Shown: one piece after another, positions 33,776 through 39,479 of the stretch | Position numbering within the stretch: position 1 is the stretch's first letter | Layout: the number at the start of each line of letters is the position of its first letter | NCBI GenBank assembly: GCA_045863855.1 | Contig: BTVV01000004.1 | Coordinates: 62,627 to 126,626, forward strand | Source: Planctomycetota bacterium | GTDB lineage: Bacteria; Planctomycetota; SZUA-567; H5-PLA8 | Reading direction: 5' to 3' | Length of the DNA stretch: 64,000 nucleotides | The notes under the pieces: generated by a model | The model's input: only the letters and a program-made list of their open reading frames with translations | Told to the model about the DNA's origin: nothing | Databases searched by the model: none | Position numbers and translations under genes: made by a program

Positions 33776-34087
33776 TCAGCCTTCGATCTTCGCGATCTTC
33801 ACGACGCTGTAATCCGTGCGGTGCCCGCGCCGAACCTTGTGCTCGTGAATGAAAAGCCGGCGGTTGGAAACCGTCTTCTCGCCCCGCGCGTGGCCTTCCA
33901 GCACCGCCGTGACCTTCGCGCCTTTCACCGTCGGCGTCCCCACCTTCACGTTGCCGTCCTGGCCCACCAGCAGGACCTCGCCGAAGGTCACCGACGCTCC
34001 CTTTTCGCCGGGCAGTTCCAGCACGCGCAGTCGGTCGCCCTCGCGCACCTTGTACTGGTGCCCGCGGTCCTTAATTATTGCGTACAT
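33776..34087 (-). CDS. rplU: 50S ribosomal protein L21
   Basis: MYAIIKDRGHQYKVREGD...VGTPTVKGAKV...RGEK...GHR; 103 aa. Confidence 0.95.
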   Translation of the reverse strand: MYAIIKDRGHQYKVREGDRLRVLELPGEKGASVTFGEVLLVGQDGNVKVGTPTVKGAKVTAVLEGHARGEKTVSNRRLFIHEHKVRRGHRTDYSVVKIAKIEG

Positions 34088-36986
34088 AGTCGTCTACCTC
34101 ACTTAGCTTCTTCGACACCCACGGCCCGTCGCTCTTCGCGACCTCCAGGCGCCACTGACTGAACGGCAGGCTCGAGTCCCCATGGAACTCCACCTTAACC
34201 CCCCGCTCCTCTTCGTACCGGGACAACTCCCGGCGGAACTGGTTTAGAATCTCAAATGCCGCCTCAGGATTCAAGGACACGCGCACCCGGTTCACTTGAG
34301 GGTCCGCGCATTGGTGCTTCAGTTCACGCATCAGCTCCAGCACCAGGCTTTCCGGCGCTTTTAGCGACCCAGAACCGTAACAGTAAGGGCACCGAATGAA
34401 CAGAGCTTTGCGCAGGCTGTGCCGTACCCGCTGCCGGGTCATCTCCACCACCCCCAGCGGCGATATCGGCAGCACATTGATCCGCGCCCGGTCCCGCGCA
34501 AGGTGCCGCTTCAGTTCCTGCTCCACCTTGCGACGGTGGTCCATGCTCTCCATGTCGATAAAATCGATCATCACCAGCCCGCCGATGTCGCGCAAGCGAA
34601 GCTGCCGCGCCACTTCACGGGCCGCCTCGAGGTTGATCGAAAGGATCGTATCTTCCTGGTTGCGCTTCTCGCGGAAGCGTCCGCTGTTGACGTCGATCGC
34701 CGTCAGCGCCTCGGTCTGTTCGATCACGATCGAGCCGCCGCTCTCGAGCCCCACCTTGCGGTGGAACAGCCGCTGAATCTGCGGCTCGATCCCGTAGCGG
34801 TGAAAGAGCGGCGTGCGCTCCTGATGCAGGCGCAGCTTCACTTCCGCCTGAGGAGCGATCTCGCGCAGGAACGCGCGCGCGCGCTCCAGCGAAACCGGAT
34901 CGTCCACCACCACCTCGGCCACGTCGTCGGTGTAAATGTCGCGGAAGACGCGCGTGATCACGTCGCCTTCTTCGTAGACCAGCGCCGGCGCACGGCCCGC
35001 GCGAGCCTTCTTCGAGATCGTGTCCCACGTCTGCAGCAGGTAATCCAAGTCCTTCTTCAGGTCTTCCTTGCCGCGTCCCAGGCCCGCGGTACGGACAATC
35101 AACCCCATCCCTTCGGGCGGCTGCAAATCCGCCAAGGCTTCCTTTAGCGCTCTGCGCGCGTGCTCGTCGCCGATCCGCTTCGATACGCCCACTCGCGCCA
35201 CCGCCGGCATCAGCACCAGATAGCGGCCTGGAATCGAAAGGTAACTCGTCAGCGCCGGACCTTTCTGGCCCAGCCCTTCCTTGGCCACCTGCACCAGAAT
35301 CTCCTGCCCGCGCTTGAGCAGTTCCTCGATCTTGTATCGTTTCGGCTCGCGGCCCTCCCGGCCCTCGCGGCCGCCGCGCTCCGAGCGTTCAGGCCGCCGT
35401 GCGTCTTCCGCCGCCGGACCGGCCGCAGTAGCTGCGCTCTCCGGCGCCGCTGGCGCGGCCGTGGTTTCGCCTGCTTCCGCTGCGGCCGTTGGCTCCGCCG
35501 CGCCAATCCCGGATTCGGTCCCTTCGAGCGGCGTCTGCGACCCCCAGCCTTCAGGCGGCATTTCGACCGCCGGGGTGGGTTCCGCTTCCGCTGCGGCTTC
35601 CGTATGGGGTTCCGGCTCTGGGTCCGGCGCCGGTTCGGCGCCTTCGTCCATCGGCTCGGCGTACGCGACCGGCTCGCCGGCTTCGTTGTCCGGCGCCTCC
35701 AGCGGCTCGTCCTCCGGACCTCCCTCGCCATCGCGCGGACCGGGCGCCAGCATCGGAGCCTGCTCGGGCGCGCGCCGGGCGCGCCCCGAACGCCCGCGGC
35801 CGCCGCGGCGCCGGCGGCGCCGGCGCTTGCCGCCCGCTTGATCGCTCGATCCGTGTGAAACGTTCGCCGCCGCCGTTTCGCCATCCAGCGGCGTCCCGTC
35901 CGGAGCCACGTTGGGCATCACCTCGTCGTCCGGAAATTCGGCGTCATCCGGCGGTGCGGATACGGAAGCGGCTGCAGATACCGTCGGATGCGGCGGCGGA
36001 ACTTCCTCGACAGGCACGTTAGGGCTCGGCTTACGCGGCGCACCCGGCGGCGGCAGTTCCGCCAGCACGCGGTCGGGCGACAGGCAATCGGAAACGTGCA
36101 GGAAACCGTTGCGCTCGCCGCCGATCTCGACGAAAGCCGCCTGCAACGAAGGCTCGATGTTGACGATGCGCGCCTTGTAGATGTTGCCGCTCTGGCTGCG
36201 ATTGCTTTGGCGCTCGATGAAAATCTCGGTCAGCTCGCCGTCTTCCACCACCGCGACGCGAATCTCGCCGGCGGAATGGGCGTTGAGCAGGAGGATTTTG
36301 TGGACGCCTGCAGGCGGGCGGGAAGGCGTCACCGCGCCGGGCGTGGCTTCGTAACCTCGGGAAGGGCGTCGGCGCCGGCGGCCGCCACGGCCCCGCGAAC
36401 CGGCGTCCCGGCCGGACGGATCGCCGCCTTCGCCAGGGGCTTCGCCCTCGGTTGGCCCGCCTTCCGAACTCGGTTCTACTCCGGTTCCGTGAGTGTCTCC
36501 GTCTCGGCTTCCGTTTCCGTCTCCGGACTCGGGTTCCCCGTCGGCTCCAGCGTCATCGAGAGCTTCGTGATCCGAATCCCCGCCAGTTGATCCTTCGGGC
36601 GTTCCAGCAGCAGGCTGAGCACTTCCAGCGGGCGCGCCGTCAGCACCGGGGTGGGCAGAATCTCGACGTCGACCGCGCCGCCTTCCGCGGCCGCGACGGC
36701 GCCGATGACCGTTCGAAGATCCACGGTCTTCGGAGGTTGCGGACGGCCCTTGCGCCGGCCCCGCTCCAGCCGCACCCGAAGGTAGGGCAGCGTCGCCGCC
36801 CGAGCCAGCCATTCCAGCCGCTCCGGAGAAACCGTCAGCTCCGCCTCCCCCAGCTCCAGCCGGTACACCACCCGAACCGGACGCTGGCCCCGGCGAACCG
36901 GATCCATCTCCCGAACCGTGTGCAGAGCCAGCCCCGGCGGAAGTGCCGCCGCCAAGCGTTCCTTCAAATCCTGAATCGGAATCCAT
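34071..36986 (-). CDS. rne: Ribonuclease E/G family (start uncertain: 36986, 36812 or 36332)
   Basis: GNIYKARI...PSLQAAFVEIG...GFL, ILVQVAKEGLGQKG, AIDVNSG, LRLRDIGGL-IDFIDM, Zn-link CPYCYG; long acidic/Arg-rich insertion within the S1 domain. Confidence 0.93.
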   Translation of the reverse strand: MDSDSGFEGTLGGGTSAGAGSAHGSGDGSGSPGPASGSGGVPAGAGGGGADGFSGAAGMAGSGGDAALPSGAAGAGPAQGPSATSEDRGSSNGHRRRRGRGRRRGRRRDSAHPGADGAPAGSAQPAAGTPEGSTGGDSDHEALDDAGADGEPESGDGNGSRDGDTHGTGVEPSSEGGPTEGEAPGEGGDPSGRDAGSRGRGGRRRRRPSRGYEATPGAVTPSRPPAGVHKILLLNAHSAGEIRVAVVEDGELTEIFIERQSNRSQSGNIYKARIVNIEPSLQAAFVEIGGERNGFLHVSDCLSPDRVLAELPPPGAPRKPSPNVPVEEVPPPHPTVSAAASVSAPPDDAEFPDDEVMPNVAPDGTPLDGETAAANVSHGSSDQAGGKRRRRRRRGGRGRSGRARRAPEQAPMLAPGPRDGEGGPEDEPLEAPDNEAGEPVAYAEPMDEGAEPAPDPEPEPHTEAAAEAEPTPAVEMPPEGWGSQTPLEGTESGIGAAEPTAAAEAGETTAAPAAPESAATAAGPAAEDARRPERSERGGREGREGREPKRYKIEELLKRGQEILVQVAKEGLGQKGPALTSYLSIPGRYLVLMPAVARVGVSKRIGDEHARRALKEALADLQPPEGMGLIVRTAGLGRGKEDLKKDLDYLLQTWDTISKKARAGRAPALVYEEGDVITRVFRDIYTDDVAEVVVDDPVSLERARAFLREIAPQAEVKLRLHQERTPLFHRYGIEPQIQRLFHRKVGLESGGSIVIEQTEALTAIDVNSGRFREKRNQEDTILSINLEAAREVARQLRLRDIGGLVMIDFIDMESMDHRRKVEQELKRHLARDRARINVLPISPLGVVEMTRQRVRHSLRKALFIRCPYCYGSGSLKAPESLVLELMRELKHQCADPQVNRVRVSLNPEAAFEILNQFRRELSRYEEERGVKVEFHGDSSLPFSQWRLEVAKSDGPWVSKKLSEVDDYVRNN

Positions 36987-37300
36987 TGATGCAATTCGAG
37001 TTCTGCGGCTTCATCGAGGGAGGCGATCCCGACCTCAAGCGCGACGGGAAACACGATGCGAGGCCGGGGATTGAACCCCTCGGTCAAACGCACCGGCAGT
37101 TGTGCCCGGCGGACCGCGCGCTGGAAGGCGCGCATGAGGTCATGATGGGATATGAAGCGGACGGCCTCGCCTTTAACGAAGCGGAGCTCGACCTTTTGCC
37201 GGATCGCCGTGGGCCCGAGTCGGTCGGAAGGCCGAGAGGACTCACGGCCGCCGGACGCGACGATCGAATCTGTTTGGGAGTCGGACGGCGGTCCGGTCAT
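36476..37300 (-). CDS. Radical SAM-associated protein (TIGR03936/DUF2344-like)
   Basis: FVKGEAVRFISHHDLMRAFQRAVRRAQLPV..TEGFNPRPRI..ALEVG..S..E; this family is commonly found upstream of rne/rng. Confidence 0.88.
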   Translation of the reverse strand: MTGPPSDSQTDSIVASGGRESSRPSDRLGPTAIRQKVELRFVKGEAVRFISHHDLMRAFQRAVRRAQLPVRLTEGFNPRPRIVFPVALEVGIASLDEAAELELHQWIPIQDLKERLAAALPPGLALHTVREMDPVRRGQRPVRVVYRLELGEAELTVSPERLEWLARAATLPYLRVRLERGRRKGRPQPPKTVDLRTVIGAVAAAEGGAVDVEILPTPVLTARPLEVLSLLLERPKDQLAGIRITKLSMTLEPTGNPSPETETEAETETLTEPE

Positions 37301-37481
37301 CGAACGTCTGTCCGCGAAGGTAAAGGCGGCGTCCACGCATGCCCTGGCACGCGATGCCCGCCCGGTGGTCTCTCGCGGTCCAGCCGCGCACGCGGCCTGC
37401 CAGCCGGCCTCTCTGCGAAACTGCGGGGACGGGAACGCCCCGTCCCTCTGAAATCCTGACTCGGCGACAGCTCCGAAAAAC

Positions 37482-39479
37482 TTACTTCGGAGCTTCCTCG
37501 CCCAACTCTTCGTCGCCCAACGGCGCGAACGGCTTCGACATCTTGCTGCGCAGCCGGTCGATCTGGGACTTGAAGTCTTCCTGGCGATCCACATCCACGA
37601 TCGTCGGCGTCACGAAGACCATCAGGCTTTCGCCCGATACGCCGCGCGAACGGTGCTTGAACAACCGTCCGATGATCGGTATCTCGCTCAACACCGGCAC
37701 CCGCGTTTCCGCCCGGTTATCCCGGTCGGTGCGCAGGCCGCCGATCACGCCCGTCTCGCCGTTGCGCAGCAGCATCTTGCTGACCACGATCCGCTGTACC
37801 GTGTCCGGCAACACCAGTTCTTCGCCGCTCGGCCCGCGGATCGTCTTCGGCTGGCCGCCGTCTTCGAGGATCAGGTCTTCCGTCTTGGGGATCACCGTCA
37901 TCAGAACGTTGTTTTCCGGGCCCGTCACGTGCGGGATGATCAGGAGCTGAATGCCCAGCTTGATCGGCGAACCGTTCGCTTCGCGGAAGCCCGATACGTT
38001 GCCGCCGCCTTCCGTATTCGCCACGAACGATTCCGCGTAGCGGAAGAGCGTACCCACCTGAATCGTCGCTTCTTCGTTGTCCAGCGTCATGAGCTGCGGC
38101 GCCTGAACCACGCGGCCGTTGGTCTTCGTCTTGAGCGCTTCGAAAAAGGCGCTGGTCGAACCGAAGCCCATCGAGCCGAGCACGATTGCACCTAAATTGG
38201 AAATGGCATAACCCGCATTGCCAGCAATAGTGTCACCGCCCGTGCCGGTAGCTTTTCGCAAGCTGAAAATGTCGTTGATGGACACGGCCGTGTTAGTTGT
38301 TTGATCAACAACTACCCGGGAACCTTGGCCTACAGCCAAATCCCCCAGGAGAGAGCGCGAAAGCCCGCTCTTCACATCGAAGGGAAACGCCGACGGCCAG
38401 CTCGACAGCGGCTGTACCTGGAACTGCAAGCCCGACGACCACTGCACACCCAGGCGTTCCTGGTCGTCGTCGTTGATCGCCACGATCTTCACGCCGACAT
38501 GGATCTGCTTAGGCGCCACATCCAGCTTGTTGATCACCGCCTGCATCGAGTCCAGCGAATTGGGCGTGTCCTGCACGATCATCGCGTTCGAGCGCTTCAC
38601 GAAGGAAATCTTGCCTTCGGTCGATTTCATCTGCGCCAGCAAGTCGATCAGCGTCGAGCCGAAAGCTTGCGTCGAAGCCTCGCCGCCTTCGCGCCGAGCG
38701 AAGTCGGTATTGAGCGTCGCCGTGTACTTCGCGCCTTCCGGCGTCAGGTAGGCCAAGCGGAAAATGCGGTGATCGAGCTGCGTTTTGAGCTTATCGCGCG
38801 TCGTGATGCGGATCGTGTCGTTGACTTCCTGGACCACCACGAAGTCCAGCGTCTTGACCACGATGTTCAGCGCGTCCTGCCACGGTACGTTCTCCAGCCG
38901 CATCGAGATCTCGCCGTTGATCTCGGGACCGACGACAATGTTCGCATTGGCCTGAATCGCGATGGTGCTGATCACGTCGCGGATGTCCGCGCGGTTGAAG
39001 ACCATCGAAACGCGTTCGGGAATCGAGATCGTGATCAAGCGCTGGTTGAGCTGCGAGTCATCCACCTGCAGGGAGTACTTCTTGGCGATGTAATCCAGCA
39101 CCGTGCGGTAGGTGACGTTGTCCAAATCCACCGTTACGGGAAGGCGTTCGGCTTCCTCGGTCAACGCGCGTACATTCAGCCCGCTCACCGCGCTCAAGTA
39201 GTCCAGCACCACCTTCAACGGCCTGTCGCGCACATGCAGCGAAATCAAGCCCTCGCCGGCAGTCTGCCCTACCGAATCGGACTTCTTCTCGTCGAAGAGC
39301 CGCTCGACGCGAATACTCTTGGGCGCTTGTTCGCCCTCTCCGCCGTCCTGCGCAGGAAGAGGGCTGACCCAGGCCCACGCCAACAGCGCCAGAATACCCA
39401 TGCCGCGTACGACCCCGGCCTGCGGGCGGGACGCGCGGACATCTCGATTCGGCTCACCTACGGCGTGCGTGTTCAACAC
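37482..39479 (-). CDS. pilQ: Type IV pilus / type II secretion secretin
   Basis: N0-type domains (ISMRLENVPWQDAL), N3 SNAMIVQDTP, secretin APQLMTLDNEEATIQVG, GETGVIGGL, RVPVLSEIPIIGRLF, VFVTPTIV. GTG start with GAGGAGG SD; ORF track extends to 39566. Confidence 0.93.
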   Translation of the reverse strand: MLNTHAVGEPNRDVRASRPQAGVVRGMGILALLAWAWVSPLPAQDGGEGEQAPKSIRVERLFDEKKSDSVGQTAGEGLISLHVRDRPLKVVLDYLSAVSGLNVRALTEEAERLPVTVDLDNVTYRTVLDYIAKKYSLQVDDSQLNQRLITISIPERVSMVFNRADIRDVISTIAIQANANIVVGPEINGEISMRLENVPWQDALNIVVKTLDFVVVQEVNDTIRITTRDKLKTQLDHRIFRLAYLTPEGAKYTATLNTDFARREGGEASTQAFGSTLIDLLAQMKSTEGKISFVKRSNAMIVQDTPNSLDSMQAVINKLDVAPKQIHVGVKIVAINDDDQERLGVQWSSGLQFQVQPLSSWPSAFPFDVKSGLSRSLLGDLAVGQGSRVVVDQTTNTAVSINDIFSLRKATGTGGDTIAGNAGYAISNLGAIVLGSMGFGSTSAFFEALKTKTNGRVVQAPQLMTLDNEEATIQVGTLFRYAESFVANTEGGGNVSGFREANGSPIKLGIQLLIIPHVTGPENNVLMTVIPKTEDLILEDGGQPKTIRGPSGEELVLPDTVQRIVVSKMLLRNGETGVIGGLRTDRDNRAETRVPVLSEIPIIGRLFKHRSRGVSGESLMVFVTPTIVDVDRQEDFKSQIDRLRSKMSKPFAPLGDEELGEEAPK

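Follow-up and report, generated by a model that had tools for sequence, protein, structure and literature searches.

In Thermus, rnpA, which encodes the RNase P protein, contains rpmH, which encodes ribosomal protein L34, and both frames are translated (PMC9841429; bioRxiv 10.1101/520783). A paper of 2019 names, in the accessible part of its text, only this pair and comS of Bacillus as earlier bacterial cases of out-of-frame internal initiation (bioRxiv 10.1101/520783), and a survey of 715 overlaps found no real co-directional one longer than 60 base pairs, the commonest class of error being a 5′ extension with alternative starts downstream (PMC2478687). Here we examine a 64,000-nucleotide (nt) stretch of a planctomycete genome (assembly GCA_045863855.1, contig BTVV01000004.1; hereafter the window), in which rne, the gene for an RNase E-like enzyme, would begin far inside its upstream neighbour, a TIGR03936/DUF2344 gene. 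From the comparison of sequences it is highly probable that the two genes form a real, translated dual-coding overlap, and a shade more probable still that rne is translated from an ATG at position 36986.

The consequence would be an RNase E with a long N-terminal arm, and disordered extensions of this enzyme are known elsewhere. In Mycobacterium smegmatis the available description has them dispensable for catalysis and important in binding RNA and in contacting PNPase, RNase J and RhlE1; when the N-terminal one is lost, both growth and mRNA decay are slower (PMC12767347). For Caulobacter RNase E, in the portions of the two reports that are accessible, it is proposed that blocks of charge drive phase separation (PMC10412687), and autoregulation through the 5′ untranslated region requires the disordered part (PMC11321048).

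The case for the overlap comes from relatives. The genome of the window (G000; G and L numbers denote the genomes and loci compared) was set beside the other members of its order (20 genomes in all, 17 of them in its own family, f1, spanning 10 genera) and of its class (62 genomes in all). An ATG stands in the -1 frame of TIGR03936 at the same site in 17/17 f1 genomes. Its A is the third base of a codon for Gln, Glu, Ala or Thr (CAA in 11, GAA in 4, GCA and ACA in 1 each), and its TG opens a codon for Trp (11) or Cys (6); the TIGR03936 residues at the site vary (Q/E/A/T, then W/C) while the ATG stays fixed. Seven metagenome loci (L048-L054, of which two duplicate G013 and G014 and one is cut short) share this ATG and are free of stops downstream of it. 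Starting there, the frame runs open into the RNase domain in 12/17 f1 genomes (two of them via L051 and L052) and to the contig end in three more, the other two having one stop (G008) and a frameshift at the junction (G001). Openness in orthologues, which the first-pass annotation of the window had proposed as a check, is therefore found in 15/17 f1 genomes from the same ATG, as far as the sequence extends. The f1 overlaps measure 430-580 nt and the arms 199-689 amino acids (aa); with genus g14 of family f5 included, overlaps range over 424-580 nt.

That this openness is maintained is shown by the way in which stops are avoided. At TIGR03936 third positions where a synonymous T would create a stop in the -1 frame, T is present at 1/457 sites after the ATG and at 42/186 before it (G001 being cut at the homologous end for these counts), compared with 324/1655 for T at sites of the same region where it makes no stop and 83/1050 for stop-creating T in 41 high-GC control loci. 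With each genus represented by its most lenient genome, 1.2 of the 10 genera would be expected to be open; nine are, over the tested stretch. Pooled P values overstate such results, the genera being kin and not independent, which is a first point to be held against our interpretation.

Nor does the family offer another general start. Between the conserved ATG and the domain no ATG, GTG or TTG occurs in G007, G009 and G021, where near-cognate CTG or ATC is present. An in-frame ATG from -60 to +12 nt around the domain start was seen in 1/14 f1 loci and in 71/71 controls with adjacent rne (f5 left out; the controls may contain duplicates). G003 carries an arm motif that is common to nine f1 genomes, and the sole canonical start upstream of it is the conserved ATG. 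In the window itself the in-frame ATG, GTG and TTG codons before the RNase domain are ATG 36986, ATG 36812 and GTG 36332 only, in agreement with the earlier remark that no ATG, and only GTG 36332, lies between the upstream stop and the domain. Comparison thus shows, at the level of sequence, a fixed ATG, purged stops and no other general start.

Taken by itself, the open frame of the window would not have sufficed. The rne frame, -1 to TIGR03936, is open there for 535 nt, and the overlap from ATG 36986 is 511 nt, at the coordinates first reported for it (36476-36986). Among the 4554 genes called in this genome (GC content at third codon positions 0.81), stops in the -1 frame come at 0.9% per codon, and 982 of the 3331 called genes of at least 730 nt are stop-free over their last 511 nt in that frame, a chance of 0.28-0.29; synonymous resampling of the locus gives a probability of openness of 0.05 when local codon usage is applied and of 0.13 when that of the whole genome is. 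Because of these two results openness in the single genome is not significant, and we dropped it as evidence; openness of the -1 frame exceeds chance only across relatives.

The host gene has not ceased to code where the two frames overlap. Between genera, identity in the overlap at TIGR03936 codon positions 1, 2 and 3 is 0.58, 0.69 and 0.44, highest at the second; 26 TIGR03936 columns are kept in at least 16/17 genomes, several of them also in 10-13 of 13 outgroups; and frame 0 has no stops. AlphaFold, with 26 sequences, models the TIGR03936 product as one confident fold (residues 5-223, predicted local distance difference test score, pLDDT, 89.6) that matches TruA pseudouridine synthases (E 6e-7, template-modelling score 0.47-0.57), and the overlap begins at residue 76 of this model. 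Because TIGR03936 stays under selection and is modelled as one TruA-like fold across the overlap, comparison shows both frames to be coding. The TIGR03936 tail past the folded core is probably a shadow of the rne arm. In f1 these tails vary in length and read like such a shadow, which suggests that the overlap may have grown from both ends.

What has been imposed upon the -1 frame appears to be a composition. Relative to synonymous resampling in nine genomes the arm is enriched in Lys (4.3-fold), Ser (2.2-fold) and Asp, Glu, Thr and Gly (1.3-1.4-fold each), Pro, Leu, Val and His stand at half of expectation, Cys, Trp and Tyr hardly occur, and 0 stops are observed where 22 are expected. Before a codon that starts with G, TIGR03936 can end the preceding codon in C or G without cost to itself, C giving Arg and G giving Gly in the -1 frame. 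The share of C in 10 genera (nine of f1 plus g14) stands at 0.72 immediately ahead of the ATG, drops to 0.04-0.19 across residues 1-75, is back at 0.67 for residues 90-104 and falls to about 0.2 past residue 120, set against a steady 0.44-0.57 after the site in 11 outgroups; these choices give the arm its order of a Gly/Ser-rich, then a basic, then an acidic segment. In the basic patch C is used at 73/125 sites and in its flanks at 42/261, a lift found in all 10 genera although the patch window was picked post hoc. Since the outgroups stand at 66/117, the patch is at background usage, and is thus a place where Arg avoidance is lifted. The first-pass annotation had called the peptide unlike the shadow frames of the window: the description fits the avoidance of Arg around the patch, and does not fit the Arg block itself. 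Translation of the open reading frame (ORF) bears out the Gly/Ser/Asp-rich character and both Arg blocks that were described; the first block, a pure poly-Arg run in the window, is such a run in only part of the family (G000, G001, G002, G004, G007, G009 and G012) and mixed Lys/Arg elsewhere. The 227 arm residues include 3 aromatic and 8 aliphatic ones. An AlphaFold model of full-length RNase E leaves arm residues 1-227 unstructured, in a model that is poor as a whole (mean pLDDT 46.6, 10 sequences).

The context of the start is A/U-rich and weakly folded. The region from -25 to +20 of ATG 36986 has a fold energy of -5.4 kcal/mol (f1 range -0.2 to -6.3), against medians in the same region of -8.3 for true starts and -12.0 kcal/mol for internal -1 ATGs, and against -14.2 kcal/mol for both ATG 36812 and GTG 36332, whose contexts are strongly folded. 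Three Glu codons upstream of the ATG are GAA in 17/17, 17/17 and 16/17 genomes, whereas Glu codons further upstream are divided between 45 GAA and 44 GAG (the first of the three being counted here as well); this GAA bias may reflect selection for an unfolded, A/U-rich initiation region. No 3′ end of 16S rRNA, where the anti-Shine-Dalgarno sequence would lie, was found in the assembly. A consensus scan of 36200-37700 gave no promoter (no sigma-70 site included) and no terminator, an internal promoter of another type still being possible, and no Rfam match up to E = 1 was found in the rne/TIGR03936 region. Contigs from RNA runs (4 of 18 listed) derive from strains about 95-98% alike and are uninformative on strand, start, level and transcription; two of the runs give a single contig from 38186 to 36279 or 36203, with indels that keep the frame (6 nt at 36508; +1/-1 at 36466/36470). 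Of the two starts put forward by the first-pass annotation, ATG 36986 is the one that is kept (17/17); ATG 36812, named there with a GGAG 8 nt upstream, occurs among the loci listed in G000 and G002 alone, has a structured context, and was set aside as the main start.

Several further observations weigh against the interpretation given here. ATG 36986 has no Shine-Dalgarno-like 4-mer, which 74 of 150 unambiguous starts do have, and its start score lies at the 23rd percentile of those 150 and at the 92nd of internal -1 ATGs. Between genera, four-fold sites are 0.46 identical before the ATG and 0.47 after it, and among closer pairs identity is higher after the ATG in 4/10 and lower or equal in 6; site-by-site suppression of synonymous variation, which had been suggested as a second check, is thus not general. 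It follows from the 0.46 that third positions have largely turned over, and, because nothing changes at the ATG, that constraint acts on stops and composition. Residue conservation of the arm is slight, with only 8 columns common to at least 14/17 genomes. The share of four-fold G in G000 and G002 is about as high in the catalytic region as in the overlap (0.59 versus 0.65), which weakens the composition argument in those genomes. In G008 (GC 0.52) the ATG is followed by 125 open codons and then a stop about 70 nt before the end of TIGR03936, with a new ATG 49 nt before that end; either the overlap was shortened recently or the stop is an error. The G001 assembly joins TIGR03936 and rne in one frame, as a fusion, and in G002 four small deletions in the S1 insertion break rne. 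The G001 shift falls at a run of G, ahead of which the -1 frame resembles the family arm, and the G001 rne holds a second frameshift. The G001 and G002 assemblies comprise 6-8 contigs, from which we consider long-read indel errors likely. Considered for its own sake, G008 (L086) possibly shows an overlap that is being lost or is becoming an upstream ORF.

The overlap is restricted in its distribution. In a quick tree of the catalytic region f1 forms one clade (support 100) with f3 as its sister (90), and the loci of f3, f2, f6, f7 and f4 have no overlap, the f2 statement referring to a single unpublished genome, G017, which is also one locus among the controls of the stop, column, C-share and domain-ATG counts. 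In f5, outside the order, genus g14 (G021 and G028) has the ATG at the same site, a 424-nt open frame and an intermediate composition, its openness alone not being significant (P about 0.6 at GC 0.70); this could reflect either an old shared origin with losses or a second origin. In genus g17 of f5, G024 has two stops and G026 an open, shadow-like frame, with a GTG at -40 in both. TIGR03936 scores above its cut-off in 117/201 genomes of the phylum; 70 of those loci were examined, and in the 52 with an adjacent rne, which occurs in all three frames, the -1 frame is never open for at least 420 nt (0/52). One of the 71 earlier controls, L068, keeps its -1 frame open over 571 nt; the composition there is shadow-like, and ATGs are present at the domain. 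Since TIGR03936 is widespread and the open -1 frame is restricted to a lineage, the older of the two frames is that of TIGR03936, and the arm has been overprinted on it. In two other loci, L233 (G094) and L176 (G182), the rne frame, there +1 to TIGR03936, extends open into that gene over 542 and 509 nt, is shadow-like, and has other starts available.

Three alternatives would deny the overlap. One is that rne starts by the domain, at GTG 36332 or at near-cognates, and that the open -1 frame is a high-GC shadow; the public call is of this form (753 aa), the -1 frame is stop-poor, with 29% of long genes open over 511 nt, and the equivalent codon is GTG in 5/14 f1 loci. That codon is, however, GTT, GTC, ATC, GAC or TCT in the other 9, its context is strongly folded, and such a start leaves unexplained the fixed ATG, the stop purge and the switch of composition right at the ATG; we consider the alternative very unlikely, and rejected GTG 36332 as the main start on its variability and folding. 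A programmed -1 frameshift, joining the first third of TIGR03936 to RNase E and making the ATG incidental, appears slightly less probable again. The G001 fusion and the adjacency of the two genes in 52/70 phylum loci would suit it, but a -1 stop immediately precedes the ATG in G001 and G004 and is no more than 24 nt away in 10/17 genomes, no slippery heptamer is common to the family (G000, G002 and G012 have none at all), and the shift would be predicted to cut the TruA-like fold; the fusion fits an assembly error, because it falls at the G run and is accompanied by the second frameshift. Least credible of the three is that rne has taken over a second half of TIGR03936 that no longer codes, so that a single coding frame is left. 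G000 and G002 do lack the usual ATG before the DUF2344 domain, and amino-acid identity is lower in the second half (0.48 versus 0.89), but outgroups without the overlap drop likewise (0.27 versus 0.56), the conserved second positions, the absence of frame 0 stops and the 26 kept columns, many of them shared with outgroups, speak for a coding frame, and the TIGR03936 profile matches over its full length.

A fourth alternative concerns function and is compatible with a real overlap: the arm would be translated but would be a passive linker, its start having moved upstream or been captured for regulation (autoregulation or coupling), with selection keeping the peptide open, soluble and harmless. 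This is a serious if less favoured possibility. The depletion of Cys, Trp, Tyr, Leu and Val with enrichment of small polar residues, the lack of residue-level conservation, the background C usage of the basic patch and G008, which seems to have shed the overprinted part, would all be expected of it; yet Arg avoidance is lifted at the same place in 10/10 genera, with the post hoc caveat already given, and the enrichment of Lys and Ser together with the acidic flanks is more pattern than solubility needs. Given translation, we incline, by analogy with other RNase E enzymes, to the view that the overprinted segment may have an RNA-binding or assembly role of its own.

We propose that ribosomes initiate at ATG 36986 inside TIGR03936, independently of a Shine-Dalgarno sequence and at an A/U-rich unfolded patch, the message being either polycistronic or one transcribed from an internal promoter. 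RNase E would thereby gain a 227-aa arm, judged disordered by its composition; residues 1-170 of this arm would overprint the latter half of the still-functional TruA-fold gene. The basic patch could bind RNA, and the alternating charge blocks could favour multivalent assembly or the binding of partners, so that arm and S1 insertion might stand in for the C-terminal tail that this RNase E lacks. More tentatively, and as a bolder form of the same idea, a charge-patterned, RNA-binding and condensate-forming arm may have been born by overprinting, written in the synonymous sites of a neighbour and reached through a mid-frame start free of a Shine-Dalgarno sequence; the coding RNA of TIGR03936 would then be the leader of rne, and the conserved A/U patch could serve ribosomes as a landing site and RNase E as an autoregulatory target.

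Table 1. Features of the rne/TIGR03936 locus, in window coordinates.
Feature	Position	Strand	Basis
rne, long form: 971-aa Rne/Rng-family ribonuclease with 227-aa N-terminal arm	34071..36986	-	ORF, TIGR00757, PDB RNase E matches
TIGR03936/DUF2344 gene, modelled TruA-like fold; start uncertain (ATG 37300)	36476..37300	-	profile, model, relatives
Overlap of 511 nt coding in two frames: 0 for TIGR03936, -1 for RNase E residues 1-170	36476..36986	-	
Proposed rne start ATG, in 17/17 family genomes	36984..36986	-	
A/U-rich, weakly folded stretch 5′ of the ATG, without Shine-Dalgarno sequence	36987..37012	-	
Arm segment 1 (residues 1-75), Gly/Ser-rich, Arg avoided via synonymous choices in TIGR03936	36762..36986	-	
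Basic patch, residues 95-108	36663..36704	-	11/14 Arg here; 6-11 Lys+Arg of 14 in family
Arm segment 3 (residues 120-170), acidic and Gly-rich	36476..36629	-	composition windows to residue 149 and ORF
TIGR03936 C-terminal tail past the folded core, low model confidence	36479..36544	-	
Non-overlapping arm (residues 171-227), second Arg block, motif kept just 5′ of the RNase domain	36306..36475	-	
ATG with GGAG upstream; not conserved, unsupported as main start	36810..36812	-	
GTG of the public gene call (753-aa form); acts as a Val codon across the family	36330..36332	-	
Low-complexity insertion of ~250 aa in S1 domain (residues 301-549), with Arg block	35340..36086	-	gap between PDB-matched stretches
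Rest of catalytic region: 5′ sensor, DNase I-like domain, Zn link, small domain	34143..35339	-	
rplU (ribosomal protein L21), next gene downstream of rne	33776..34087	-	

The genes themselves are readily identified (Table 1). ORF calls and profile searches of the window place them on the minus strand in the order PilQ-like secretin, TIGR03936/DUF2344, rne, rplU. The rne product scores 500.6 bits against TIGR00757 (cut-off 325.95) and is the sole RNase E/G match in the genome, with one PF10150 match; it stays below the cut-offs of the E. coli-type equivalogs NF008074 (RNase E, 403 versus 908) and NF008689 (RNase G, 388.8 versus 594). In a PDB search its residues 230-300 and 550-927 match E. coli RNase E, with which the catalytic Asp motifs, the 5′ sensor and the Zn-link cysteines line up, these being the roles that we take the aligned motifs to have. 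The RNase domain starts at V228 (36305), and the protein ends 23 aa past the small domain, with no long C-terminal tail. The TIGR03936 product scores 136.8 bits (cut-off 71.9) over profile positions 2-208 of 209, and the partner radical SAM gene, TIGR03960 (693.6 bits), is on another contig of the same genome. The public collection holds the 753-aa RNase E from GTG 36332 and neither of the longer forms; the public gene calls that we checked (G000 and G015) begin downstream and so miss the arm, and public calls of the TIGR03936 product are of 274 or 219 aa. A protein search with residues 1-300 returned RNase E matches, with the overprinted segment in 0/8 of those inspected by eye.

Some side observations on these genes may be recorded. 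An ATG directly before the DUF2344 domain (window 37210-37300) is absent in G000, G002, G009 and the f5 genomes and present in 13 other f1 genomes. A motif A..RA.QIV, probably helical and followed by an Arg block, occurs in the non-overlapping arm of nine f1 genomes (L083, L084, L007, L086, L088, L089, L016, L091 and L025), 40-365 nt past the TIGR03936 stop; it is absent from the genus of the window and is a candidate partner-binding microdomain. Two other RNase E proteins from the protein search, P0015 and P0016, have long Lys/Thr and acidic N-terminal arms. The S1 insertion (250 aa, charged) has an Arg block that is invariant among 10 aligned proteins. The catalytic region of rne (34143-35339) is rich in four-fold G in G000 (0.59) and G002 (0.63) and not in most relatives; its -1 stops (7 and 9 of 422 codons in those genomes) argue that it is no second overlap. 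Inside the secretin gene about 150 nt (window 38187-38343), of lower GC content, are swapped in related strains for an unlike sequence of similar length.

Our literature search found no earlier description of an rne/TIGR03936 overlap, supplements and most subscription papers being outside its reach. The error of 5′ extension, prominent in the survey of 715 overlaps by Palleja and colleagues, is excluded here at the family level by the start and stop tests on the compared sequences. A same-strand overlap of this length between two conserved genes of RNA metabolism, kept across about ten genera with selection in both frames, would show how a core enzyme can acquire a disordered arm without new DNA, and that such an arm conserves its charge pattern, not its sequence. 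The tests used, on stop-creating synonymous sites and on the Arg/Gly switch, can be applied to other genomes for more cases.

Considering the systems with which we began, the Thermus L34 gene is on the scale of 144 nt, and comS encodes a short separate peptide. With Thermus rnpA/rpmH our locus has in common a same-strand, out-of-frame overlap of two housekeeping genes of which one is ribonuclease-related, there a ribonuclease subunit; in the accessible accounts, the two Thermus ATGs share one initiation site and one Shine-Dalgarno sequence and the L34 gene is fully nested. Here, in contrast, the rne start is mid-gene and lacks a Shine-Dalgarno sequence, the overlap is partial (424-580 nt), the host is a folded enzyme-like domain, and the TIGR03936 and rne starts are about 220-310 nt apart, unlike the shared site of Thermus. 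Like comS in srfAB, as far as that case is described in the source available, rne would use out-of-frame internal initiation inside a translated gene (bioRxiv 10.1101/520783), but the overprinted frame here is the N-terminus of a downstream enzyme. The arm resembles that of mycobacterial RNase E, by layout only, in being long, probably disordered and N-terminal to the catalytic domain, although the mycobacterial enzyme also has a C-terminal disordered region that the planctomycete enzyme does not, and the accessible text on it speaks of no overlap with an upstream gene (PMC12767347). With the Caulobacter tail it shares alternating positive and negative blocks and Arg-rich patches (PMC10412687); that tail is C-terminal with DNA of its own, whereas the arm here is N-terminal and largely in the synonymous sites of another gene. 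The olg1 and olg2 genes of Pseudomonas aeruginosa are likewise long bacterial overlaps under purifying selection, but are, in the text accessible, antisense, new stand-alone ORFs whose translation was seen directly (PMC8850804), the planctomycete overlap being known from comparison. Set beside these systems, the rne/TIGR03936 overlap is, on well-supported comparative grounds, of a known but rare kind, and new in its layout.

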